Positions 2,602 through 60,448 of a stretch of 64,000 nt of DNA are shown here, one piece after another; position 1 is the first letter of the stretch; every line of letters begins with the position of its first letter. Origin of the DNA: Acidobacteriota bacterium (GTDB lineage Bacteria > Acidobacteriota > UBA6911 > RPQK01 > JAJDTT01); the NCBI GenBank assembly GCA_965209055.1, contig OZ242374.1:224001-288000 (forward strand). The letters are read 5' to 3'. The notes below the pieces were generated by a model. That model was not told the DNA's origin and searched no databases. It was given only the letters and a program-made list of their open reading frames with translations. A program made the translations under genes and the position numbers.

Positions 2602-5415
2602 TTAATCGGCCCGAATCGTAACGCGGGTCAAATAGGGGGACGCATACCCCATGCCGGCGATCAGTGTGACCCGATATTGGAGCCAGGTATCGTGGTCCCC
2701 TCGCGAGAGCCGGCCCGACTCCGGGACCGTTCTCCAGTCGGCTTGCTCAAGGCCGTTGCGGTCAGGCGAAAAACGGGTCCGGAGTTGGATCCGGGATCCG
2801 CGGGGAGTCTCCGCCTCGCGGGTCAGCTTGATATCGCCGGGCCAGGTGGAGAGGTCGAGCGCCGGCGAGGTGTAGGACGCCTCCGGCTTCCGGGTCGCCA
2901 GGTTCCCCACGTCCACGTTCTGCAGGAAATGCGGACCCGGCGCGGGCAGATAGCTCCGGTTCGCCACCGAGAATCCGTCCTGAGCGCCCCAGTAGAGATA
3001 GCTCTCGACGCTGTGGTTGTCTTCGCCGACCGAGAGCTTGTGGTTCATCACCAGAAGATCGGTGTGTCCGTCGTAGTCCATGTCCGCCGCCATGAGAGCC
3101 GAAGGGGACTCTCCCGGCAGGTCGGTGCGGCGCCGCGCCGAAAATCCCCCCCGGCCGTCGTTCCAGAACAGCAGCACCGGAAGCTTCCGGTGGCTCCGGG
3201 ACTGGTATTGGGAGACGGCCAGATCGAGAACGCCGTCCCCGTTCAGGTCCGACGCCAACACGTCGATGGCCCCCACCGTGGGGAAATCGAACCTCGGCTC
3301 GGCTTCCAGTCCCCGTTCGTTCCCGTGGTAGACCTTGATCCAGGAGTCGGCCCGATTGACCCCGTCGTCCCTGGAATAGGGACGCAGCAGAACCAGATCC
3401 AGCCGGCCGTCGGCGTCGAGGTCCGCCACCTCCGCGTTGCCGATCCCCGGCTCTTCCAGTCTTTGAACCCGTCCGGACGAATAGCCGTCGGGACCGCCCA
3501 GCAGAATCTTGCTGTAGGGACTCCCGATGTCCGCGGTCAGGATGTCCAGCCAGCCGTCACGGTCGAAATCCAGCAGCCGGCAGTTCTGGCCCATGCGGGC
3601 CACGTCCGGAATCCGGATCTGGCGGCCGGGATCCGAGAATTTGCGGGGACCTCCCCAGGCGAAGAAAAGGGTGTCGAAATCGAACCCCACGATGTCCAGG
3701 TAGCCGTCCCGGTTCAGGTCGGCGATTTCCCAGGAACCGTTCTCGTTGAGGTCGAATTCGTGGCGCTTCTCCACCGCGGGTCCGCCGGGAGTCCCCCAGT
3801 AGAGGTAGCTGGCTCCGGGCAGCCCCGAGTAGTGCCGTCCCGAGTTGGCCACCAGCAGTTCCGCATGGCCGTCGTCATCCAGGTCGACCATGGCGATCCC
3901 CATGGCCATGACGCAGGGATAGCGGCTGACGAAGGCGGGGGAATAGCCGCGGTGAGGCCGTCCCCAGTAGACGTAGACGTACTCGTCCTTGCCCCCGGAG
4001 ATCCCGCTCCCGGTGTTTCCGAAGAGCAGGTCCTTGCGGTGGTCGCCGTTCAGGTCGCCCACCGCCACCGCGGCGGCGCCGAAGGTCTGCAAATCGGTCC
4101 GGCGCGCGTCGGCATACCCGTGAACGCTCCCCCAGAAGACATAGGAAGAGACGTCCAGGTTGCCGTAGGCGCCCTCGGAGTAGTTGGCGAAGATGAGTTC
4201 GGGAAAGCCGTCGCTGTTGAGGTCGGAGACGGCCACGTCCCTGGCGTTGAGGGTCGGGATGGGGGTTTCGGAGCGGTCCTTTCCCCAGATGACAGCCGAC
4301 GTGTCCCCGCCGGCCAGGACGATCTCCAGCCGGCCATCCCGGTCCAGGTCCGCGAGGCGTACGCGCGCGCCGCCCCGGTCCACGGTCGTTTGCAGGACCG
4401 GCTGCCGAGACGAGAACGCGAAGAGCCGTAGCTCCTTTTGCGAGAGCGCTGCCAGCATCGTCCCGCGATCCGCTGTTGCAGCCGTCTCCAGGGACACCAG
4501 GCCGGGGATCGGAAACCGCGAGGGGGACTCCGGATCGGGCCCCGCATCGCTTCCCCAGTAGATCTCGAGTCCTCCTTCTTGTCCGTGGGTGGCGAAGATC
4601 AGGTCGGGATGACCGTCCGCGTCCAGGTCGGCGATCCGGCAGCCCACGGCGCCGTCCGTGGGCATGGCGCTGCGGTGACGCTCTCCATAGAAATCGGTCG
4701 TTCCCCAGTAGATATAGGAGCCCGGGTTCCTCCGGCCCGGGCCTGTCCGGTTGGCGAAGACCACGTCCTGTCGGCCGTCCCGGTTCAGGTCTCCCACGGC
4801 CACGTCCCGGGCGCCCACCGTGGGCAGTGCGGTGCGGGAGTCGCGCCGGTAGCCGGATTCGGAGCCCCAGTAGATGAGGCTGTCGGAGAAGGGGGTGTCC
4901 CCGAGTCCCGAGGAGGCGAAGAGGATGTCGGCGTGGCCGTCCTGGTCCAAGTCGCTGAAGAGGACCGCGCTGGGGCGGTCGGCCGGGAGCCGCAGCGTGC
5001 TGGAACGGCTTTTTTCCTCCTGCAGCCACAGGTCGTACAGGGCCAGGGACCGGTGCAGGGGAGAAAGGACCGACCGGTAGCCGCGGTTCGTCTGCAGGTA
5101 GCCCAGAGCGTCGATGCTCCCCACCATGACGTTGTGGGTGCTGGCGAAGGGGAGGTCGTAGTAGCCGTCGTTGTTCAGGTCCCAGCGTCGAATCAGTTGG
5201 ACGCGGCCCTTGCGGGAGACGTAGATGTCCTGCCCCGCATGCTCGAAGCTGCCCTTGGAGAAGCTTTCGAAGCCCTCGTGCACGATCTTGAACTCGGCGG
5301 CTTGGGCGAGTGTCAGCGTGAGGAGAATTGGCAGAAGGGCCCAGAGGGGGACTCGCGATGCAGGGTTCCGTCTGGTTTCCACTTCTTCAACGTGCGCGCG
5401 ATCAGTGATCGACAT
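2602..5415 (-). CDS. Secreted FG-GAP/VCBS repeat beta-propeller protein
   Basis: Many DLNxDGxxDL repeats alternating with YxYWG motifs; hydrophobic signal LWALLPILLTLTLAQA; true start may be slightly downstream. Confidence 0.85.
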   Translation of the reverse strand: MSITDRAHVEEVETRRNPASRVPLWALLPILLTLTLAQAAEFKIVHEGFESFSKGSFEHAGQDIYVSRKGRVQLIRRWDLNNDGYYDLPFASTHNVMVGSIDALGYLQTNRGYRSVLSPLHRSLALYDLWLQEEKSRSSTLRLPADRPSAVLFSDLDQDGHADILFASSGLGDTPFSDSLIYWGSESGYRRDSRTALPTVGARDVAVGDLNRDGRQDVVFANRTGPGRRNPGSYIYWGTTDFYGERHRSAMPTDGAVGCRIADLDADGHPDLIFATHGQEGGLEIYWGSDAGPDPESPSRFPIPGLVSLETAATADRGTMLAALSQKELRLFAFSSRQPVLQTTVDRGGARVRLADLDRDGRLEIVLAGGDTSAVIWGKDRSETPIPTLNARDVAVSDLNSDGFPELIFANYSEGAYGNLDVSSYVFWGSVHGYADARRTDLQTFGAAAVAVGDLNGDHRKDLLFGNTGSGISGGKDEYVYVYWGRPHRGYSPAFVSRYPCVMAMGIAMVDLDDDGHAELLVANSGRHYSGLPGASYLYWGTPGGPAVEKRHEFDLNENGSWEIADLNRDGYLDIVGFDFDTLFFAWGGPRKFSDPGRQIRIPDVARMGQNCRLLDFDRDGWLDILTADIGSPYSKILLGGPDGYSSGRVQRLEEPGIGNAEVADLDADGRLDLVLLRPYSRDDGVNRADSWIKVYHGNERGLEAEPRFDFPTVGAIDVLASDLNGDGVLDLAVSQYQSRSHRKLPVLLFWNDGRGGFSARRRTDLPGESPSALMAADMDYDGHTDLLVMNHKLSVGEDNHSVESYLYWGAQDGFSVANRSYLPAPGPHFLQNVDVGNLATRKPEASYTSPALDLSTWPGDIKLTREAETPRGSRIQLRTRFSPDRNGLEQADWRTVPESGRLSRGDHDTWLQYRVTLIAGMGYASPYLTRVTIRAD

Positions 5416-5999: not shown

Positions 6000-8900
6000 T
6001 TACGGACCCGCGGTGAAACGGCGGGTCTCCAAGGACTCTCCGTAGACCTCTTCCCCGGGACCGTATCCTCCTCCCACGGCGCCGGTTACGTATTGGTAGT
6101 CCAGGATGAAGGTCATGACGTCCGCCATTTCCTGTCGAGAGATGGTCTCCTCCAACCCCTCCGGCATCAGGGACTGCCCGGTGGCCCGGATCTCCTGGAT
6201 GTCCCTCCTCAGCAGCGTGTTCTGCAACTCCTCGCTCTCCACCAGGGTGATGCTGGCCGCCGTCTCCTGGGCCATGAGGCCGGTGTAGAGACGCCCCTTC
6301 CGGTCGGTCACCACGTAGTTGGTGAATTGAGGCTCCACCATCCGGTTCGGGTCCAGGATGCTGGTCAGGAGCGTCTCCCGGTCCTGGTAGCCCGCCACGA
6401 TGAGATTCGGCCCGACCACGTGCCGTGTGGTGCCCACCTGGTGGCACTTGATGCACTCGCGGCGGTAGACCTTCTCGCCGCGCACCCGGTCCCCCGGCAG
6501 CGTCAAGGCGGCCTCGTAGCTGGCCACCACCTCCTGCCGGTCGCCGGGCGCGGCAGATTCGAAGAGTGCCAGGGACCGGTCGCGGATCCCCCGGTCGTCG
6601 TGGTTCATCAGCAGGTCGCGGCGCTTGGCGTCAATCTGGTGGACCGGAACCTCCTCCGACTCGATGGCCTCCAGCAGGGAGCGGGTCCATTCCGGGCGGG
6701 AAAACACTCCCGACAAGACCCCGCCTCGAACCTTGGGCGTCTGCGCGCCCCACGACTCCAGAAGGAGCGGAGCGATCTCGGGGTCGTCATAGCCGGCCAG
6801 CGCCCCGATGGCGGCCAACTGCAGCGCCTGGGACTGCAAGGGGTCGATCAGTTTCGCCAGCGTCTCCCTGACCTCTCCCAGAGCGGCGTGCCGGAGCAGT
6901 CCGATGGCCGCCAGCCGTTTTTCTTCCGGTTGTTCCGCGTCGGCGGCTGCCGCAAGAGATCTCTCCAGGTGGTTGCGGATCATGCGGGCGGCTGCGGGGT
7001 GGAGATTCTTGAGCCCGGTGAACGTCCTTCCGTTGACGGCCAGTCCCTCGGCCAGGCTGGTGACGATGGCCAACTGCAGCTCCGGCCGGGAGGTCAGCGC
7101 CTCATGGGTGGCGGCTGCGCGGGTCAGGCGGCGGAGTTCCGAGGCGACGCCGCGGCCCCCCACGGTCCGGGCCAACGGAGGCAGCCACTGCCCCGCCAGC
7201 GGTTCCTGCTGGAACTCGTCCAATGCCACAAGCTCCGTGAAGAGACGGTCGGCCAGGCGGGTGCTGGAACTGAGCACCGAGTTGCGGATCCAGCGGTCTC
7301 CGCCGTCGGTGCGGGCGATCTTCAAAAGGGCCGGGAGAACCCGCCGGTCGCCGATCACTCCCAGAGCCAGAGCCACCCTCATTCGCACCCGGGGATTCTC
7401 GTCCCCGGCCAGCTCCAGGATCTTCCGAAAGAGCCGTCCGGAGCGCTTCATCCGGAGCTCCGCGTGCGGCACGGCGTGTTCCCGGACCCCGGGCGAGGAA
7501 TCGGACAACGCATTCGCCACGTCCGTGTTTCTGAGAGCGCCCAACCCGTGCAGCGACCAGAGGGCGTGCATCCGGGCCAGGGGGTGTTCGCTCTCGGTCA
7601 AGAGCCGCCGCAGCAGCGGCACCGCGGATTTGTCCTGACGCTCGTAGATGAGCCGGTGCGCCGTCTCCCGCCACCAGCCGCCGGGATGCTCCAGGTGTCC
7701 AACCAACTCCTGGATGCTCGCTTCTCCCAGCCGGGGCGCCGGCGGCACCTTGAAGTCCAGGGGCGCCACCCGGTAGATCCGTCCGTGTTCGGACCCTCGG
7801 GAGAAATCCAGATGTGCCAGGACCCGCTCCGGGACGTGGCCGTGCTCCACCAGCTCCCGGCACATGTCCAGCACGTAGAGGGTGCCGTCGGGGGCGTTGA
7901 CCGAGTTGATCGGGCGGAACCAGTTGTGGCTGGAACGGAGGAATTCCTTGCCCTCGGGTTCGCCTCGCACTCCCTTGAAGGTGACCCCGTCCGGTTCCAG
8001 AATCCGGCGATGCAGCAGATTGGCGGTGGCGGCTCCGGTGAAGATGTTGCCCCGGTATTCCTCCGGATAGGCGTGACCGGTGTAGGCCTTTACCCCCGCC
8101 CAGGCGGCGGCAAACTCCTGGTAGTTTTCCCGGCCGCCCTCCTCGACGCGGGTGATCCGTCCGGCGAAAATCCGCCGGGCTTCCCGAACCTTGCGCCATC
8201 GTTCGATGGGGCTGGCGCGGTAGATGGGGAGCCGTCCCTGGGTCAGCGGGTTGGTCTCCATGGAACCCGCGGTCAGGAACCCGTGGAGGTCGAAGAAGAG
8301 GTAGGGATTCCGCTCCAGGTATCCGTGCGGCATGACCACGTGCCGGCCGAAGGACCCCGCCCGGCAGACGTAGCGGTTGAACCACTCGTCGAAGGTGTAC
8401 CCGAACTGGAAGGTCTGGGTGGTGAGCTCCATCTCCAAGCTCACCGGACTGAACCGGAAGTCCCGGTTGTAGACGGAAACCGGCTCCGCGTCCGGCTGGC
8501 CGCCGGGGCGGATGTAGCCTCCGTTGCCGCCGGTGGAGGCGTAGATCTTGTGGTCCACGCCCCACATGATGTTGTTGACCATCTGCTGCTCGTTGGTGAC
8601 GCCGAACCCGGTGTAAATCTGCTTGCGGACATCGGCCCGGCCGTCGCCGTCCGTGTCCTTGAAATAGAGGATGTCCGGCGCCGCCGAGACGAAGAGCCCC
8701 CCTTTCCAGACCGCCACGCCGGTGGGCCAGACCAGCTTGTCGGCATACACCTGCGCCGTTTCGAAGGTGCCGTCGCCGTCCCGGTCCTCCAACATCCGGA
8801 TCCGGCCCGTGCCCTCCTCACCCGGCCGCGGCTGGCGCGGATAGCCGTAGAATTCGGCCACGAACATGCGGCCGTTTTCGTCGAAGGTGGCGGCCAGGGG

Positions 8901-9215
8901 TTCCACCACCTGAGGCTCGCGGGCCACCAGTTCCACGCGAAAGCCATCGGCCACCTCGAGGGCCTTCAGGGATTCGGCCGGATCCAGCGGCGGGATCGGT
9001 TTCAGGTATTCTCGGAGCTGGTCCGGATTTCTGGAGATGTCGGTGATCCGCCGCCACTCTTCCGTTTCCTCATCCGGTCCGCCGGCGCAGGCGAGAGGCA
9101 GAAGAAGAGCGGTCAGCAACAAAATCCCTCGGAGCCGGCTCCAGTGCTCGAATTGCCGAGGCCAGATCGCTGCCTGTTGGATGCGCGGAAACCAAGTTCG
9201 TCTCATGGCGATCAT
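6000..9215 (-). CDS. PVC-type heme-binding CxxCH protein (sorbosone-dehydrogenase-like propeller + HEAT-like repeats + cytochrome c), probable lipoprotein
   Basis: GFRVELVAREPQV, LEDRDGDG, APDGTLYVLD, GRIYRV, helical repeats, CIKCH, GPNL, SLMPEGLE; lipobox-like LLLPLAC; start uncertain. Confidence 0.88.
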   Translation of the reverse strand: MIAMRRTWFPRIQQAAIWPRQFEHWSRLRGILLLTALLLPLACAGGPDEETEEWRRITDISRNPDQLREYLKPIPPLDPAESLKALEVADGFRVELVAREPQVVEPLAATFDENGRMFVAEFYGYPRQPRPGEEGTGRIRMLEDRDGDGTFETAQVYADKLVWPTGVAVWKGGLFVSAAPDILYFKDTDGDGRADVRKQIYTGFGVTNEQQMVNNIMWGVDHKIYASTGGNGGYIRPGGQPDAEPVSVYNRDFRFSPVSLEMELTTQTFQFGYTFDEWFNRYVCRAGSFGRHVVMPHGYLERNPYLFFDLHGFLTAGSMETNPLTQGRLPIYRASPIERWRKVREARRIFAGRITRVEEGGRENYQEFAAAWAGVKAYTGHAYPEEYRGNIFTGAATANLLHRRILEPDGVTFKGVRGEPEGKEFLRSSHNWFRPINSVNAPDGTLYVLDMCRELVEHGHVPERVLAHLDFSRGSEHGRIYRVAPLDFKVPPAPRLGEASIQELVGHLEHPGGWWRETAHRLIYERQDKSAVPLLRRLLTESEHPLARMHALWSLHGLGALRNTDVANALSDSSPGVREHAVPHAELRMKRSGRLFRKILELAGDENPRVRMRVALALGVIGDRRVLPALLKIARTDGGDRWIRNSVLSSSTRLADRLFTELVALDEFQQEPLAGQWLPPLARTVGGRGVASELRRLTRAAATHEALTSRPELQLAIVTSLAEGLAVNGRTFTGLKNLHPAAARMIRNHLERSLAAAADAEQPEEKRLAAIGLLRHAALGEVRETLAKLIDPLQSQALQLAAIGALAGYDDPEIAPLLLESWGAQTPKVRGGVLSGVFSRPEWTRSLLEAIESEEVPVHQIDAKRRDLLMNHDDRGIRDRSLALFESAAPGDRQEVVASYEAALTLPGDRVRGEKVYRRECIKCHQVGTTRHVVGPNLIVAGYQDRETLLTSILDPNRMVEPQFTNYVVTDRKGRLYTGLMAQETAASITLVESEELQNTLLRRDIQEIRATGQSLMPEGLEETISRQEMADVMTFILDYQYVTGAVGGGYGPGEEVYGESLETRRFTAGP

Positions 9216-53997: not shown

Positions 53998-55344
53998 CTA
54001 GAACGCCGGCCCGACACTGACCCGGACCCGCGCACCTTCCCGGCCCCTTGCCAGGTCCACCCGGAAGAGGACGCGGTCCCGGCTCTTGAATCGAAACCCG
54101 AACCCCACGTTTTTCCGGAGCCCCGTCAGATTGAAGTCCGATCGGTCCCGAAACACCTTGCCCGCGTCGTAGAAGAGGGCCAGTTCCAGAGCGGGCGCCG
54201 CCTCCCAGCGGTACTCGGCCGAGAGGTAGATGAGATTCCGGTCCCGGAAACGCTGATCCCTGAAGGATCTCAGAACATGCGGCCCCCCCAATGTGGGCTG
54301 ATAGTAGAAGGGCACCCGGCTTCCGCTCTCGGGTTGGGTCGTCGAGGTCAGGAAACGCAGGGCCAGCACCCGCTGGCGGGATCCCAACGACAGGTATTGA
54401 CGCCCCTGCATAGCGAAGCCCGAGAAATGGTAGTCGGCCCCGCCCAATTGGGCGTGGCGGGACCAGGACAGGTCAACGACGCTCCCCGAGTGGGTGTTTT
54501 CCGGCCGGTCCCGAAAGTCCAGGGAGAGAGTGGCGCGGGTCCGAAGGAAACCGGGTTGGCGGGCGAGGCCGGGGGTCGTGGCATCGTCGAAGACACTTGC
54601 GACGGGAACGGCGCCGGGGTCGGTTCCGGGACCGGTGTTCACCTGTAGCACTCCCACTTCCGACTCTCCCAGCAACCACGCGCCCACCCGGTACCGGACG
54701 GTCTTCCCATAGAAAACCTCCTCCAGGCGGTAATCGCTGCGGTCTCGCTCCCTGGAGTCGGCGCCGGGTCCGAAGTAGTTCAGCCTGGGAAAGTTGCGGT
54801 ACCGGATCTGGCCGAAGACGCTGAGCCGTTCCGTCGTTCGACCTGGCTCGGCTCGCTGGCGGAACCCGTGGTCTTCCGGGTCGAGTTCGAAACCGGGGCC
54901 GATGTTCGGGAGCCGGCCGAACTGCAGGTCAACCAGTTGGTAGCCGCGGATGGAATAGCCGCCCGTCAGGGCCGCGCCGAGCCGGCTGCGCCTCAACTTC
55001 GGCTGCCAGTACCGTGCGCCGAAGGCGACGGCGGACCGGGGCCCCAGGACGCCCACCACCGGCTTGAGTCCCGGTGAACCGGTACCGCCAAGCGTACCGA
55101 ATCCTCTCTTTTCCACCCAGAGAAGAGCCTTTTCGAGGCCGCCGGCACGAGGCGGAGTGACGCGGGATCGCTTCTCGATCCGTTTCTGCTTCCAGCGTCC
55201 GGCCCGGGTGTCCTGGGGGGAAGCGGACTTTGTGCCTGGGGTTTCTTTCCCGGCGCCGGAATCGCCGGATTCCGCACTCCCGGCAGCAACGCCTGGAAAG
55301 GAGAGCAGCAGGTAGGCCGAGCAGAGGACTCGCAAGCCGAGCAC
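53998..55344 (-). CDS. BamA/TamA (Omp85) family outer-membrane barrel, apparently without POTRA domains
   Basis: LGGPHVLRSFRDQRFRD (loop-6 VRGF-like), AEYRW, LFYDAGKV, GFGFRF, C-terminal Phe; start trimmed to GTG 55344. Confidence 0.85.
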   Translation of the reverse strand: MLGLRVLCSAYLLLSFPGVAAGSAESGDSGAGKETPGTKSASPQDTRAGRWKQKRIEKRSRVTPPRAGGLEKALLWVEKRGFGTLGGTGSPGLKPVVGVLGPRSAVAFGARYWQPKLRRSRLGAALTGGYSIRGYQLVDLQFGRLPNIGPGFELDPEDHGFRQRAEPGRTTERLSVFGQIRYRNFPRLNYFGPGADSRERDRSDYRLEEVFYGKTVRYRVGAWLLGESEVGVLQVNTGPGTDPGAVPVASVFDDATTPGLARQPGFLRTRATLSLDFRDRPENTHSGSVVDLSWSRHAQLGGADYHFSGFAMQGRQYLSLGSRQRVLALRFLTSTTQPESGSRVPFYYQPTLGGPHVLRSFRDQRFRDRNLIYLSAEYRWEAAPALELALFYDAGKVFRDRSDFNLTGLRKNVGFGFRFKSRDRVLFRVDLARGREGARVRVSVGPAF

Positions 55345-55420
55345 GAAGCGGCATTCTATCGCAGCCGGCCGCCTTGGGGGTAACGGGCCGGTGCGGCTCC
55401 ACTCAGGGATGTCGGCGGAC

Positions 55421-55449
55421 TTGACCCGGCCCGTCGCCTCGGCTACGTT
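55421..55449 (+). promoter_or_regulatory. Sigma70 promoter upstream of the riboswitch
   Basis: TTGACC, 17 bp, TACGTT. Confidence 0.55.
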
Positions 55450-55451
55450 GA

Positions 55452-55633
55452 TCCCGCGTCGGTGCTCCGGCCATCCGGAGCGGCGAGAGGGAACCCGGTG
55501 AGAGTCCGGGGCTGCCCCGCAGCGGTAAACGGGAACGACCGCCGTCTTAGCACTGGCTCCGGGGAGTTGGGAAGCGACGGCCTGTAGGAGCGGCGAAAGC
55601 CGAATGCCCGTGAGTCCGAAGACCTGCCGGCAC
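55452..55633 (+). ncRNA. Cobalamin (B12) riboswitch
   Basis: AGGGAA-CCCGGTG..TCCGGG-GCTGCCCCGCAGCGGT, CACTGG..GGGAAG, B12 box GAGTCCGAAGACCTGCC; lies upstream of btuFCD-like genes. Confidence 0.93.
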
Positions 55634-55734
55634 CATATCCATTGACCTGTGCCTTCGAGGGAAGGAACAGGGTCGCTCCGGCCGGCCTGGCTTTCCTCTT
55701 CCTCATCGAAACCCCGGGTCGTGGCCGAGGGACC

Positions 55735-56511
55735 ATGAACGGCGCGGAACCGCAACAAAAACCGGGGGAGGAAGACACCCTGCCGTTAAACGGTGCCGGC
55801 GAGTCCATCGCCATGTGCTTCAGCGGGGGAAAGGACAGTTCCCTCGCCCTGTGGGAGATTCGCCGCGCGCAGACGTATGTGGTCGAAACCCTTTTGACCA
55901 CGGTCAACGCCGAGTACGACCGGGTCAGCATGCACGGCGTTCGCCGTGAGCTGCTGCGGGAACAGGCGGACGCCATCGGGATTCCAATGACGGAGGTCCC
56001 GGTGCCCCGAGTTTGCACTAACGCCGTCTACGAGCGGGAGATGGGGGCGGCGTTCGCGCGGCTGGCGGCCGGCGGAATTCGGCGCGTGGCCTTTGGCGAC
56101 ATTTTCCTGGAAGACCTGCGGACCTACCGGGAAGAGCAGTTGGCCGCCTCGAAGCTGGAATGCTTCTTTCCGCTCTGGAAGCAGGACACCGGGAAGTTGG
56201 CGCGCCGGTTCATCCAGGGTGGGTTCAAGGCCGTCCTGGTCTGCGTGAATTTGAAGGTCCTGGATTCGACCTTTGCCGGCCGCCGCTTCGATGAGGCCCT
56301 GCTGTCCGACCTTCCGCCGGGTGTCGACCCGTGCGGCGAGAACGGAGAATTCCACACTTTCGTGTACGACGGACCGGTCTTCCGCCGGTCCGTGCGCGTG
56401 TCTACGGGCGAGGTCGTCCAACGGGACTCCTTCGTTTTCTGCGACCTGCTGTCCGCGTCGCCGCCCCGGCGATCGGCTCCACCGTCCCCCAACCCAGGAG
56501 GAGAGGAATGA
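55735..56511 (+). CDS. Dph6/MJ0570-like ATP pyrophosphatase (diphthamide-synthase family, AANH)
   Basis: PP-loop SGGKDS, MHGVR, FGDIFLED, FPLW, DPCGENGEFHT. Confidence 0.9.
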   Translation: MNGAEPQQKPGEEDTLPLNGAGESIAMCFSGGKDSSLALWEIRRAQTYVVETLLTTVNAEYDRVSMHGVRRELLREQADAIGIPMTEVPVPRVCTNAVYEREMGAAFARLAAGGIRRVAFGDIFLEDLRTYREEQLAASKLECFFPLWKQDTGKLARRFIQGGFKAVLVCVNLKVLDSTFAGRRFDEALLSDLPPGVDPCGENGEFHTFVYDGPVFRRSVRVSTGEVVQRDSFVFCDLLSASPPRRSAPPSPNPGGEE

Positions 56512-56606
56512 AACCTCGGCGCTCCCCGATGCTGGCGCTGCTGTTCAGCGGCGTGTCCCTGAAACAGCCGGTGCCGGCTCAGGCATACCGGTTCGGCGGC
56601 TCATAA
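56508..56606 (+). pseudogene. 32-codon coupled mini-ORF, probable remnant of a deleted exported protein
   Basis: RBS AGGAGGAGAGG and ATGA overlap; MKPRRSPMLALLFSGVSLKQPVPAQAYRFGGS. Confidence 0.45.
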
Positions 56607-56615
56607 CGGGTCGAA

Positions 56616-57539
56616 ATGTCTCATCGGATCATCACCCTCATCGCCAGCGCAACGGAGATCGTGTGCGCACTCGGCTTCGAGCGCGAGCTGGTCGGCCGTT
56701 CCCACGAATGCGACTATCCCGCCTTCGTGTCCCGGCTTCCGACCTGCTCGAGTTCGAAGGTGGAATTGGAGGCCGTCAGCCGGACCATCGACGATCAGGT
56801 CCGGACCATCGTCTCCGACGGCCTGTCCGTCTACCGCGTCGATCCCGACCTTCTGAATCGCCTGGCGCCGACGGTCATTGTCACGCAGACGCAGTGCGAG
56901 GTCTGCGCCGTCAGTCTGCGGGATGTCGAGGAGGCAGTGTGCGAACTCGTGACTTCGCAGCCTGCGATCGTTTCCCTGGAACCCATGGCCCTGTGCGACG
57001 TTTGGGAGGACATCCGCAAGGTGGCGGCGGCGCTTGGAGACCCGGGACGCGGCGACGATCTCGTGACCGGCCTCAAGGATCGGCTCCAGGGGATTCGCAC
57101 ACGGACGGAGCCGGTGCGGACCCGTCCTTCCATTGCGTGCATCGAGTGGATCGATCCTCTCATGACCGCGGCCAACTGGATGCCCGAGCTGGTCGAATGC
57201 GCCGGCGGCCGGAACCTCTTCGGTGAGCCGGGGAAACACTCCGGCTATTTCGACTTCGACCAGCTTGCGGCTGCCGATCCGGACGTGATCGCCCTCTTGC
57301 CGTGCGGCTTCGATATCGAGCGCACCTGCCGCGAAATGCCCCCGCTGGCGACCCATCCGGGATGGCCGGAACTGGCCGCGGTCCGGAACGGACGCGTGTT
57401 CGTGACGGACGGGAACCAGTATTTCAACCGGCCTGGACCGCGAGTCGTGGAGTCCGCCGAGATCCTGGCGGAGATCCTGCATCCTGGACTCTTCGATTTC
57501 GGGCACCGCGGGACCGGGTGGAAACGCTGGGAAGGTTAA
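56616..57539 (+). CDS. BtuF-like helical-backbone binding protein lacking a signal peptide, Cys-rich
   Basis: RIITLIASATEIV, SHECDYP, QCEVCAV, EWIDP, PCGF, FNRPGPR. Confidence 0.85.
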   Translation: MSHRIITLIASATEIVCALGFERELVGRSHECDYPAFVSRLPTCSSSKVELEAVSRTIDDQVRTIVSDGLSVYRVDPDLLNRLAPTVIVTQTQCEVCAVSLRDVEEAVCELVTSQPAIVSLEPMALCDVWEDIRKVAAALGDPGRGDDLVTGLKDRLQGIRTRTEPVRTRPSIACIEWIDPLMTAANWMPELVECAGGRNLFGEPGKHSGYFDFDQLAAADPDVIALLPCGFDIERTCREMPPLATHPGWPELAAVRNGRVFVTDGNQYFNRPGPRVVESAEILAEILHPGLFDFGHRGTGWKRWEG

Positions 57540-57624
57540 GAATCGGCATTCGCCTGACGATCCTGTGAATCGCTTGGAGGAATGCGGGCGGAGAGCCGTA
57601 AGCGGATGGACTTGAGAAGTGCAG

Positions 57625-58521
57625 ATGAATCGAGCCCGGCGAGCCCTGCGGATCCTCCTGCCCGTATTGCTGTTGGCAGGATGCCGGGAAGAGCAGACAC
57701 CTCGTCCGAACAGCGCGTCTCCCGCTTCGGAACCGGAATCTGACGCCCGGCGAGTCATCGCCTACGGCCCCAGCATCGTGGAGTTTCTGTTTACCATGGG
57801 TCTGCAGGACCGGATCGTCGGGGTGTCGCCCCACTGCGACCACCCTGCCGAGGCACGCCGTTTGCCTGTAGTCGGGACCGCGGTCGAACCGAACGTGGAG
57901 AAGATCCTGGCGCTCCGGCCCGACCTGATCGTGGCGCTGGGGAAGGGGTTCAAGCTGGAGCGCATCGCTCGCCGGCAGGGAATCCGGTTCCTGGCCCTGG
58001 AATCGACATCGGTCGGGGACGTGCTCCGAGCGCCGGTCCGGTTGGGCGATGCGCTGAGAAATCCCCGGGCCGGCGAGCCCGTGGCCACGCGCCTGAAGCG
58101 GGAGTTGGACGAAATCCGGCAACTTTATTCCGGACGTCCCCGTCTCGACGTCCTGGTGGCGATGGGCAGCAAGAGCCACCAGGTGTTCTCCGCGGGGAAG
58201 GGATCCTTCCTGACCGGGTTGGTGGAACTGGCGGGCTCGCGCTCCATCACCGCCGACCTGGAAAAACCGTGGCCCGTGGTGAGCCTGGAGACGGTCCTGG
58301 TGCGCCGTCCCCAGGTCATCCTGGTGCTGGACTCACGGGACCATCTTCCGGAGGAGGTGAAGAACCGGTTCCTGGCGGAATGGCGGATGCACCCCACGCT
58401 GCCGGCGGTCCGCGACGGACGGGTCCGGGTGCTGAACGGCAGTTTTCTCCTGCGTTCGGGTCCACGCCTTCCCCAGGCCGCCCGGCTCATCGCCCGGGCC
58501 ATCCACGGCGGCGAGGAATGA
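57625..58521 (+). CDS. btuF: Cobalamin ABC transporter periplasmic binding lipoprotein (BtuF-like)
   Basis: Lipobox LLLAGC, PNVEKILALRPDL, LPAVRDGRV, RSGPR. Confidence 0.8.
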   Translation: MNRARRALRILLPVLLLAGCREEQTPRPNSASPASEPESDARRVIAYGPSIVEFLFTMGLQDRIVGVSPHCDHPAEARRLPVVGTAVEPNVEKILALRPDLIVALGKGFKLERIARRQGIRFLALESTSVGDVLRAPVRLGDALRNPRAGEPVATRLKRELDEIRQLYSGRPRLDVLVAMGSKSHQVFSAGKGSFLTGLVELAGSRSITADLEKPWPVVSLETVLVRRPQVILVLDSRDHLPEEVKNRFLAEWRMHPTLPAVRDGRVRVLNGSFLLRSGPRLPQAARLIARAIHGGEE

Positions 58522-59381
58522 GTAAGGGAGAAGAAGAGGAGGGGAAACTGGACGCTTCTTTTTCACTGACGGCGCAGGGAGTGGCGTTTCGTTACGCCGG
58601 GCAGGAGTCATTGCTGGAGGACGTGCAACTTTCGGTCGAGCCGGGTTCGCTCACCATGCTCATCGGTCCCAACGGCGCCGGGAAAAGCACTCTGATGAAG
58701 ATCCTGGCCGGTCTGCTGGAGCCGGCGCAGGGGACCGTCCAACTCCAGGCCGGGCCTGGAAAACGCTCGCACGACCTGGCCGGCCTGTCACTTCTGGCCC
58801 GGGCCCGGACGGTCGCCTATCTGCCCCAGGAAGTCCTTCCTCCCGACGGTTACACCGTGCAGGAGGTGGTCCTTCTGGGCCGCTTTCCCCACCAGCGATG
58901 GTGGACTCTCCCTGGTGAGCAGGACCGGGAGATCGTGGGGGAGTCGCTGGAGCGAATGGGGGTGGCGCAGCTGAGGAATCGGGTGTTCGAATCGCTCAGC
59001 GGCGGGGAGCAGCAGGCGGTTCTCCTGGCGGGGATCCTGGCCCAGCAGAGTTCGCTGTTGTTGCTGGACGAACCGGGGAAGGGGCTGGACGTCCACCATC
59101 TGGCGACGTTCTCACAGAGGCTCCGGCGCTTGGCCCGTGCCGGCAGGGGCATTCTCTGCATCACCCACGACCTGAATCTGGCCTCCCGTTTCGCCGACGT
59201 GATCTACCTGCTCTCGGACCGAAGGATCCGCGCTCGGGGCCGGCCCCGGCAAGTGTTGACCCAGGACTTGATGGAGGAATCCTACGGAAGCGACGTCGAG
59301 GTCACGCGGGATGCCGGAAGCGGACTTCCCGTGGTCCTGCCCGGTTCCCGGTCCGACAAGCCCGGCGGTATCCGGAGATGA
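58518..59381 (+). CDS. btuD: Cobalamin/iron-chelate ABC ATPase (BtuD-like)
   Basis: GPNGAGKST, LSGGE, LLDEP, THDLNLA; ATGA coupling. Confidence 0.85.
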   Translation: MSKGEEEEGKLDASFSLTAQGVAFRYAGQESLLEDVQLSVEPGSLTMLIGPNGAGKSTLMKILAGLLEPAQGTVQLQAGPGKRSHDLAGLSLLARARTVAYLPQEVLPPDGYTVQEVVLLGRFPHQRWWTLPGEQDREIVGESLERMGVAQLRNRVFESLSGGEQQAVLLAGILAQQSSLLLLDEPGKGLDVHHLATFSQRLRRLARAGRGILCITHDLNLASRFADVIYLLSDRRIRARGRPRQVLTQDLMEESYGSDVEVTRDAGSGLPVVLPGSRSDKPGGIRR

Positions 59382-60448
59382 CCAGGGACGGCTCCGGGGG
59401 TCGAACGGGCCAGGTTTTGGGAACCGTGGGGTTGTGCTTCCTCTTTTTGTTCACGGCTCTGGCCATCTCGCCGTTCTTCGGAGCCGAAGAGGTCGACGCG
59501 CTGTCGGGGCTGAAATTGATCTCCCGGCACGGTTTCACGTCCCCTCTGCCGGAGGAACTGCCCGAAAGGGATCAGAATCAGGTCCTGCGCAGCATCGTCT
59601 CCAATCGCATTCTTCGGTCCTGGATGGGGGTCATTGCCGGCGCCGGACTGGCGGTGATCGGAGCGGCGCTGCAGGCGATCCTGCGCAATCCTCTGGTAGC
59701 GCCGTCGACTCTGGGGGTCTCAACGGCGGCGGCCGTCGGCGCCTTCTGCGTCATCATCGGATTCGGGTCCGGACTCACCTGGGGCCCCTTCTCGCCGATC
59801 CAGGTGGCCGCCTACCTGGCGGCGGTCCTGGACATCCTCCTGATCTACGGCATCGCGAGACTGGCCGGACGCCTCAGCATGGCGACCCTGCTGCTGGCCG
59901 GGATCACGGTGAACCTGATCTGCGGCGCTCTCATCCTGCTGATGCGTCACCAGGCCGAGAACCCTTATGACCTGCACGTGTTGGACCACTGGCTCATGGG
60001 GAGTCTGAACTCGCTATACACCTGGAGCGATCTCTGGAGCATTCTCCCCTTTGTTCTGCCGGGAGTGGCCGTGATCGTCTGGTTGTCGCACCGGCTCAAC
60101 CCCTTGGCTCTGGGCGATGACTACGCGGCGGGTCGCGGCGTGCCGGTCCGCCGGGTCCGGCTTCTCGTCTTCGTGTTCGGCTCCCTGGCCGTGGCCGGAA
60201 TCGTCTCGGCGGTGGGGCCCATCGGATTCGTGGGGCTGATCGTGCCGCACATGGTCCGCCGCCTGGTGGGAACCGATCAGCGGCTGGTGATGGCGGCTTC
60301 GCTCCTGGTGGGGGGCGGGTTCCTGCTCGTCTGCGACTGCATCGTCCGGTCCAGGCTCATCGGAGGCGTGGAGTTGCCGGTGGGCGTTCTGACCGCCCTG
60401 CTGGGCGGCCCCACGTTCCTGTTCCTGCTGATTCGCTCCCGCCGTTAA
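59378..60448 (+). CDS. btuC: FecCD/BtuC family ABC permease
   Basis: LQAILRNPL, WLMGSL, GPIGFVGLIVPH, LPVGVLTALLGGP. Confidence 0.88.
   Translation: MTRDGSGGRTGQVLGTVGLCFLFLFTALAISPFFGAEEVDALSGLKLISRHGFTSPLPEELPERDQNQVLRSIVSNRILRSWMGVIAGAGLAVIGAALQAILRNPLVAPSTLGVSTAAAVGAFCVIIGFGSGLTWGPFSPIQVAAYLAAVLDILLIYGIARLAGRLSMATLLLAGITVNLICGALILLMRHQAENPYDLHVLDHWLMGSLNSLYTWSDLWSILPFVLPGVAVIVWLSHRLNPLALGDDYAAGRGVPVRRVRLLVFVFGSLAVAGIVSAVGPIGFVGLIVPHMVRRLVGTDQRLVMAASLLVGGGFLLVCDCIVRSRLIGGVELPVGVLTALLGGPTFLFLLIRSRR

Follow-up and report, generated by a model that had tools for sequence, protein, structure and literature searches.

A DUF71-B12 enzyme and a cytoplasmic BtuF-like protein paired behind a cobalamin riboswitch in an Acidobacteriota genome: a candidate corrinoid-processing unit

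Among the relatives of the PP-loop enzyme Dph6, a subgroup named DUF71-B12 has been defined by an ENGEF/YH motif which replaces the EGGE/DxE motif of Dph6 (de Crecy-Lagard et al. 2012, Biol Direct 7:32; PMC3541065). In the parts of that paper covered here, 75 of 102 DUF71-B12 members adjoin genes of B12 transporters and 18 of 102 adjoin cbiB, and an anti-correlation with CbiZ led the authors to propose cautiously that the subgroup replaces bacterial CbiZ. A reviewer remarked that PP-loop ligases have hardly ever been recruited to act as hydrolases or amidohydrolases, and the authors agreed in their reply that the hint was phyletic only (PMC3541065). In the part of a 2016 table considered, DUF71-B12 is entered as 'function unknown, B12 salvage', and literature searches found no later experimental work on the subgroup. 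The link between Dph6 homologues and B12 has thus been in print since 2012, the reaction itself has not. Here, a member of this subgroup is described from a window of 64,000 nucleotides of an Acidobacteriota bacterium (GenBank assembly GCA_965209055.1, contig OZ242374.1, positions 224,001 to 288,000), in which a cobalamin riboswitch is followed by genes for the enzyme, for a cytoplasmic protein with the fold of the B12-binding protein BtuF and for a BtuF, BtuD and BtuC importer. A model reading the DNA letters had predicted that enzyme and BtuF-like protein form a corrinoid repair or remodelling module (the original prediction).

The enzyme matches PF01902 with an E-value of 1.6e-35, and about 200 of its residues can be aligned to 3rjz and 2d13, two Dph6-type proteins of solved structure (E 2.5e-18). 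Its PP-loop SGGKDS and its motif DPCGENGEFH are invariant among 23 aligned homologues, and its GENGEFHT aligns with GEGGEFET of 3rjz, whereby a histidine takes the place of the catalytic glutamate (E188 of PF0828). Against the Dph6 equivalog TIGR03679 it reaches 87 bits with a cut-off of 197.3. An assignment as Dph6 itself was rejected, as these two defining features, the equivalog cut-off and the catalytic glutamate, fail. To our knowledge, bacteria have no diphthamide, and the substrate of the enzyme must therefore differ from that of Dph6. Judged by its motifs and its place, the enzyme is a member of DUF71-B12: the PP-loop is intact, the ENGEF/YH motif is present and the gene clusters with B12 transport genes. 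The reported anti-correlation with CbiZ, however, fails here, since CbiZ (165 bits) is present in the same genome. The His-type motif is also carried by 18 of 20 further PF01902 genes sampled from the phylum; clustering of the neighbours at 20 further DUF71 loci gave no recurrent partner. At one other locus (L118, G002:C1:5184500-5196000), the minus strand holds a riboswitch, a TonB-dependent receptor, BtuD, BtuC, BtuF and two tandem DUF71 paralogues with differing motifs (ERGEFH vs EHGEYH) and no BtuF-like gene nearby. At another (L121, G142:C143:7000-12824), a DUF71 gene (3978-4697, plus strand) follows a riboswitch and a TonB-dependent receptor gene; it is interrupted by a single TAG in frame, which reflects either a broken gene or a sequencing error.

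The BtuF-like protein matches PF01497 with 61 bits and the NCBIfam model NF002894 (BtuF) with only 18 bits, the cut-off being 234. The Pfam domain begins at residue 5, which leaves no space for a signal peptide, and upstream of the open reading frame (ORF) no further ATG, GTG or TTG is found in frame. An identity as true second periplasmic BtuF was rejected owing to the missing signal peptide and to the fusion of the domain to cytoplasmic enzymes in other organisms. The family is large, with 1189 representatives of 50%-identity clusters matching at E <= 1e-30, and in most of the 150 representatives listed the match, as read from the table, begins within the first 12 residues or so. Members sharing 50-70% identity are spread over Acidobacteriota, Planctomycetota, Chloroflexota, Proteobacteria, Gemmatimonadota, Nitrospirota, Verrucomicrobiota, Bacteroidota and others. 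Where database names exist, they read 'cobalamin-binding protein' or 'ABC transporter substrate-binding protein', and the protein atlas returned only the family itself, auto-named 'cobalamin-binding protein'. The protein carries the motifs HECD (residues 30-33), CEVC (94-97) and PCG (229-231), of which H30 is conserved in 96%, C32 in 100%, C94 in 92%, C97 in 90% and C230 in 97% of 119 aligned representatives. Further conserved in the same set are D33, Q91, E177, W178, W188, D265 and R272; the whole 12-residue signature is exact in 88 of the 119, and C94 and C97 are usually lost together.

An AlphaFold2 model of the protein (pLDDT 96) found heme- and B12-binding proteins as its nearest structures by Foldseek, at about 20% identity and a probability of 1.00, and hhalign aligned it to Escherichia coli BtuF with a probability of 98.3. 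In that alignment, the cavity residues Y50, W66, W85, F162, F168 and W196 of BtuF, as given in the part of the source covered (PMC5269720), map to E31, S67, Q91, E177, M183 and S209, hence none of the six aromatic residues is kept. C32 lies beside the position of Y50, the CxxC motif is part of an insertion of 8 residues that directly follows the position of W85, and C230 belongs to the loop behind the corresponding strand of the C-lobe. The cleft is thus remodelled around thiols and acidic residues. Narrow phrase searches, which give a weak negative, found no paper on such a cytoplasmic BtuF-like protein, and this partner appears not to be in print. The description of both proteins in the original prediction, i.e. 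a PP-loop Dph6 homologue as the first gene under the B12 riboswitch and a BtuF-fold protein with HECD, CxxC and PCG motifs and no signal peptide as the second, therefore stands.

The pairing of the two is solid. In a sample of 301 genomes of the phylum (including the unpublished G024 and G049; threshold for the BtuF-like gene E <= 1e-40), the BtuF-like gene occurs in 62, PF01902 in 83 and both in 28 genomes, and in 15 of the latter, six of them from the window's own genus, the two genes lie less than 1 kb apart; as related genomes are not independent, these counts are descriptive only. A second, multi-phylum sample comprises 80 BtuF-like loci, and here PF01902 is found near the BtuF-like gene at 10 loci, mostly directly upstream and on the same strand. 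Furthermore, DUF71 and BtuF-like domains share one polypeptide in 17 of 60 long homologues, mostly in the order of the genes in the window and reversed in one chytrid protein. This argues that enzyme and BtuF-like protein act as a pair, and a direct complex is likely. All 17 fusions have an ExGEFH motif (16 ENGEFH, one EWGEFH), and their PP-loop reads S(T/S)GKDS in the seven fusions inspected from bacteria, compared to TGGKDS in the one from a chytrid; on the BtuF-like side, SHxC is kept in 16, CxxC in 17 and the last cysteine of (P/C)CG in 15 of the 17. The supposition of the original prediction that the two proteins belong together is thereby borne out. A complex prediction for enzyme and BtuF-like protein (alignments A3 and A1) scored 0.00 in both runs and carries no weight either way.

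Other long homologues join the BtuF-like domain to different partners: an asparagine-synthase-like PP-loop domain in P0239, whose 1484 codons form an uninterrupted frame on a contig of 4.9 kb, and in a protein of Chara braunii, a CN-hydrolase domain in P0447, the homocysteine-binding domain of methionine synthase (MetH) in P0418 and, in another case, AHSA1. In 17 of the 60, mostly from algae and chytrids (Volvox, Diacronema, Podochytrium, marine transcriptomes), the partner is the Cys-rich, 48-residue DUF5522. Where it stands behind the BtuF-like domain (P0431, P0441, P0443 and P0202, from algae, chytrids and some bacteria), DUF5522 displays a conserved C-C-x3-C-x2-C followed by proline, which looks like a metal or cluster site.

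The coordinates of the locus are given in Table 1. The riboswitch matches RF00174 over the complete model (1-189/189) with 100.1 bits against a cut-off of 31.5 (E 7.5e-24) and was recovered by a whole-genome search as well; the start of the region in the original prediction, 55452, falls inside its aptamer. No other Rfam family was found in the whole window. All five genes and a gene relic between the first two share the strand of the riboswitch, with short or overlapping junctions, and the string ends at a convergent short-chain dehydrogenase gene. A hairpin predicted over the GAGGGA box is as stable as shuffled sequence (z 0.15), and scanning the operon for promoters and terminators yielded no signal beyond that of shuffled sequence. 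A long Omp85-family frame (53998-55758, minus strand) extends with its own 5' end across the riboswitch; as its Pfam domain spans only residues 304-570, the true start codon of this frame is probably located far downstream of that given.

Table 1 Features of the riboswitch-headed string in window coordinates
Feature	Position	Strand	Basis
Cobalamin riboswitch aptamer	55443..55645	+	RF00174
Leader and expression platform (inferred) to first start codon	55646..55734	+	GAGGGA box 5 nt before ATG 55735
DUF71-B12 type PP-loop ATP pyrophosphatase (Dph6 homologue), 258 aa	55735..56511	+	PF01902
32-codon relic of DUF6580 (PF20221) membrane-protein gene	56508..56606	+	Alignment with sister-species locus L008
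Cytoplasmic BtuF-like protein, class III binding-protein fold, 307 aa	56616..57539	+	PF01497
BtuF-type lipoprotein, substrate-binding protein of the importer	57619..58521	+	PF01497 and NF002894
BtuD-type ABC ATPase	58518..59381	+	PF00005
BtuC-type permease (FecCD family)	59378..60448	+	PF01032

The last three genes (57619-60448) combine an exported binding protein, a FecCD permease and an ABC ATPase in one string, as had also been predicted in the form of a separate, normal lipoprotein BtuF with BtuDC. The importer's BtuF has a lipoprotein-type signal sequence with an LLAGC lipobox and matches PF01497 with 102 bits, its best NCBIfam model being NF002894 (110 bits, cut-off 234). BtuD, whose start overlaps the btuF stop, matches PF00005 (E 9e-29), has heme and corrinoid ABC ATPase models as its best NCBIfam matches and scores 212 bits against a corrinoid ATPase equivalog with a cut-off of 537; BtuC matches PF01032 (E 2.8e-75) and, best in NCBIfam, NF007081 (BtuC; 198 bits, cut-off 461). 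All three proteins thus miss their equivalog cut-offs, and a corrinoid is assigned as the probable substrate from the riboswitch context only.

For enzyme and BtuF-like protein, we tentatively propose, at rather less than even confidence, a cytoplasmic corrinoid-processing pair which most likely re-amidates side-chain carboxylates, placed within a B12-repressed corrinoid uptake operon. The operon would comprise the uptake system (riboswitch, BtuF, BtuD and BtuC) and a two-protein cytoplasmic processing unit. In this scheme, the BtuF-like protein would take the corrinoid on the cytoplasmic side in a cleft lined by His30, Cys32, Cys94, Cys97 and Cys230, which may either ligate cobalt through sulphur or hold a zinc or Fe-S site, and would present a corrin side-chain carboxylate to the enzyme. 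The latter would adenylate this carboxylate with ATP and then form the amide from ammonia, such that deamidated cobamides are repaired or under-amidated ones completed. Re-amidation of corrinoid carboxylates fits PP-loop chemistry by analogy, and the fusions of the BtuF-like domain to asparagine-synthase-like and CN-hydrolase domains point the same way. The tie of the module to corrinoid handling, part of the original prediction, is upheld by the ENGEFH motif and by the published association of its subgroup with btuCDF in the parts of PMC3541065 covered.

Several observations weigh against this proposal. Corrinoid binding by the BtuF-like protein is an assumption, as none of the aromatic cavity residues of BtuF is retained, and its four cysteines and histidine would equally fit redox or cobalt-ligand chemistry and not substrate presentation. 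The BtuF-like gene is found without PF01902 in 34 of 62 genomes, hence the binder also works without the enzyme. The host already has a canonical amidotransferase of the CobQ/CobB type, literature searches found no biochemical data for either family, and the genome counts carry the limit stated above. Within 8 kb, at least one of riboswitch, BtuC-like gene, DUF71 and DUF6580 is found at 27 of the 80 BtuF-like loci; at the other 53, B12 genes and riboswitches are missing from the neighbourhood, and no recognisable one accompanies 17 of the 20 DUF71 loci sampled. At nine loci with DUF71 or DUF6580 modules, an Rfam run, made as a check that the nhmmer riboswitch profile had missed none there, found no cobalamin riboswitch within 8 kb.

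The strongest rival, which we consider rather unlikely, is cytoplasmic B12 processing or chaperoning without amidation. The BtuF-like protein would bind incoming cobalamin base-off via a cysteine thiolate, remove or exchange its upper ligand or reduce its cobalt, and the cofactor would then be passed to an adenosyltransferase or methionine synthase; the PP-loop enzyme would serve another ATP-dependent step. The four conserved cysteines and the histidine on cleft-facing loops, the fusion to the homocysteine-binding domain in P0418, the Cys-rich DUF5522 fusions and the many genomes with a binder and no PF01902 are all in line with it. A precedent exists in BtuM, for which Cys-ligated base-off B12 with decyanation is described in the part of the source covered (PMC6072759).

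The 104-nt 'gap' between the enzyme and BtuF-like genes holds an in-frame, 32-codon relic of a DUF6580 gene. In the sister-species locus L008, an intact DUF6580 gene (7389-7991) stands between the same two genes, and a global DNA alignment of both loci gives about 90% identity in both flanks with the middle missing, i.e. an internal deletion of about 500 bp in the window; the start of the relic overlaps the upstream stop (ATGA) just as in L008. The order in L008 is riboswitch, DUF71, DUF6580, BtuF-like, second riboswitch, TonB-dependent receptor, BtuF, ATPase and BtuC. This second riboswitch-like match (9036-9184, plus strand) lies between the BtuF-like and TonB-dependent receptor genes, so that the cytoplasmic trio and the transport genes of L008 form separate riboswitch units. 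In the window, neither this receptor gene nor the second riboswitch is present. Elsewhere in the host genome, no DUF6580 was found by a search which matched no control genome either, and neither DUF6580 nor nine other ORFs recurring among the neighbours received a name from NCBIfam.

Based on a model of the intact sister protein with a mean pLDDT of 72, DUF6580 may resemble an S-component or BtuM-like membrane protein: the 14 best rows of a structural search are all S-components, BtuM or a CbiM-type cobalt ECF component, matched over the full length with Z-scores of 7.8-11.9, and BtuM (8ovv, 8c7p) gives Z 11.5 over 165/175 residues with this model of middling confidence. DUF6580 has no sequence match in the PDB, and its Foldseek E-values are 0.8 or worse. 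A DUF6580 gene lies near the BtuF-like gene at 9 of the 80 loci, directly upstream of it in most. If DUF6580 were a solitary vitamin carrier, the BtuF-like protein would stand directly behind two different B12 entry routes, which would suit a cytoplasmic acceptor. The processing rival can draw on this placement at 9 of 80 loci and on the S-component and BtuM matches of the model (Z 11-12). However, the match to S-components derives from a model of limited confidence and falls into a Z range where helical bundles can match by chance. Processing without amidation leaves the adenylating PP-loop enzyme, which is fused to the binder in 17 of 60 long homologues, without a role.

Less probable again, and on balance doubtful, is that the pair handles a ligand other than a corrinoid, such as a heme-like tetrapyrrole, a metal or an Fe-S cluster, or replaces a B12-dependent step by a B12-independent one, and is placed under the riboswitch in some lineages only. 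The heme binders ShuT, RhuT and PhuT are as near in structure as BtuF, the aromatic B12 cage of the latter is gone, the four-Cys site could bind a metal, and most loci of both families, as counted above, have no B12 neighbours. Yet, where there is context, it is always B12, with a riboswitch upstream on the same strand at 7 of the 80 BtuF-like loci (nhmmer profile) and a BtuC-like gene at 12 of them. The clustering with B12 transporter genes reported in the parts of PMC3541065 covered speaks for a corrinoid as well, as do the place of both genes inside the tightly joined string from riboswitch to btuFDC and the distribution of the binder relative to CbiZ. CbiZ occurs in 5 and CbiB in 17 of the 301 genomes, and the BtuF-like gene is present in all 5 CbiZ genomes and in 9 of the 17 CbiB genomes, compared to 62 of 301 overall. 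Of the 83 PF01902 genomes, only 2 have CbiB.

The absence of CbiB from 81 of 83 PF01902 genomes also narrows the choice of substrate. This count concerns the B12 subgroup, since nearly all sampled PF01902 genes are of the His-type (18 of 20), and it speaks for a substrate whose nucleotide loop does not have to be rebuilt. The system of enzyme and BtuF-like protein is independent of CbiB. From chemistry and distribution, the obvious candidate substrate would be a complete or near-complete cobamide with a free side-chain carboxylate. The host genome, one contig of 6.08 Mb, encodes four B12-binding domains and only two TP_methylase genes, hence the host uses B12 but cannot make the corrin ring; neither the ring methylases nor CobS, CobU and CobT were found in this genome. 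In addition to DUF71-B12 it contains CbiZ, whereas five sister genomes with the same string of riboswitch, DUF71 and BtuF-like genes have neither CbiB nor CbiZ; among the sampled members of the genus, all five others lack both.

Elsewhere in the host genome, a second cobalamin riboswitch (G000:C1:2022289-2031100; L006 8184-17085) controls a PduO-type adenosyltransferase, CobN and a ChlI/ChlD-like protein. The CbiZ and CbiB genes of the host are divergent from this riboswitch, in an island flanked by transposase genes. A few kb further (G000:C1:2034400-2040750; L007 426-6744), a DUF7676 gene, a second BtuF/FecCD/ABC-ATPase cluster and the CobQ/CobB-type amidotransferase (CbiA and GATase_3) stand in this order.

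The published idea that DUF71-B12 replaces bacterial CbiZ, whether by cleaving adenosyl-pseudo-B12 or cobinamide to cobyric acid or by another route, with CbiB and the nucleotide-loop enzymes rebuilding the cofactor, can draw on the strict anti-correlation of CbiZ and DUF71-B12 among bacterial CbiB genomes and on the members adjoining cbiB, both from the parts of PMC3541065 covered, and is nevertheless highly improbable here, as a CbiZ-like role needs CbiB to use its product and makes no sense in a phylum in which CbiB is mostly absent, and as the coexistence with CbiZ in the host, the sister genomes with the same operon and without both proteins, the negative search for CobS, CobU and CobT in the host and the reviewer's point on PP-loop ligases all stand against it.

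Most microbes import B12 and do not make it, and in bacteria the stage between transporter and enzyme is poorly known. The pairing of enzyme and binder gives a defined two-component system with natural fusion proteins and a short list of substrates, and such fusion in other organisms offers a direct route to finding their function. The phyletic comparison, in turn, disposes, as far as this phylum is concerned, of the one function so far proposed in print. If deamidated cobamides are indeed repaired, this would represent a new class of cofactor repair and change how environmental 'B12 analogues' count as usable vitamin. A broader view, to which we assign a low likelihood, is that the enzyme and the four-Cys BtuF-like protein constitute a widespread, unrecognised intracellular B12 step, in which a thiolate-held corrinoid would undergo ATP-dependent re-amidation of its damaged side chains, and the cofactor would thus be repaired or matured, in many bacterial phyla and, by way of fusion proteins, in B12-using algae and chytrid fungi, in a role comparable to that of the animal processing chaperones.

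With the DUF71-B12 subgroup of 2012, the enzyme has in common the PP-loop fold, the ENGEF/YH motif and the place beside btuFCD under B12 control; unlike it, the enzyme coexists with CbiZ and occurs in its phylum almost always without CbiB. In the parts of PMC3541065 covered, BtuF is named only as a transporter subunit, and a cytoplasmic BtuF-like partner is not described. Dph6 (diphthine-ammonia ligase, EC 6.3.1.14) has the same ATP-binding residues, and adenylation of a carboxylate is probably shared, whereas the enzyme stays below the equivalog cut-off and has histidine for the catalytic glutamate. CobQ/CbiP and CobB/CbiA perform the proposed type of reaction, the ATP-dependent amidation of corrin carboxylates, but have an unrelated fold (CbiA P-loop and GATase_3) and act on biosynthetic intermediates. 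On the side of the binder, periplasmic BtuF of E. coli and Vibrio (1n2z, 1n4a, 5ysc) and the heme binders ShuT, PhuT and RhuT display the same two-lobe class III fold with a TM-score of about 0.7, and the arginine at the position of R246 of BtuF is retained. In contrast to BtuF, the BtuF-like protein has the HxC, CxxC and C-G family motifs and an inserted helix (46-63), and its family is often fused to cytoplasmic enzymes. BtuM from Thiobacillus denitrificans (6FFV) is related to the locus by a fold likeness to DUF6580 of middling strength and without a sequence match, and the corresponding gene is destroyed in the window's genome. MMACHC and MMADHC, the B12 processing chaperones of animals, are likened by function alone: as far as the sources covered describe them, they handle incoming B12 in the cytoplasm with Co-S chemistry, as the processing rival would have it, and, unlike the binder of this locus, they are not fused to a PP-loop enzyme.

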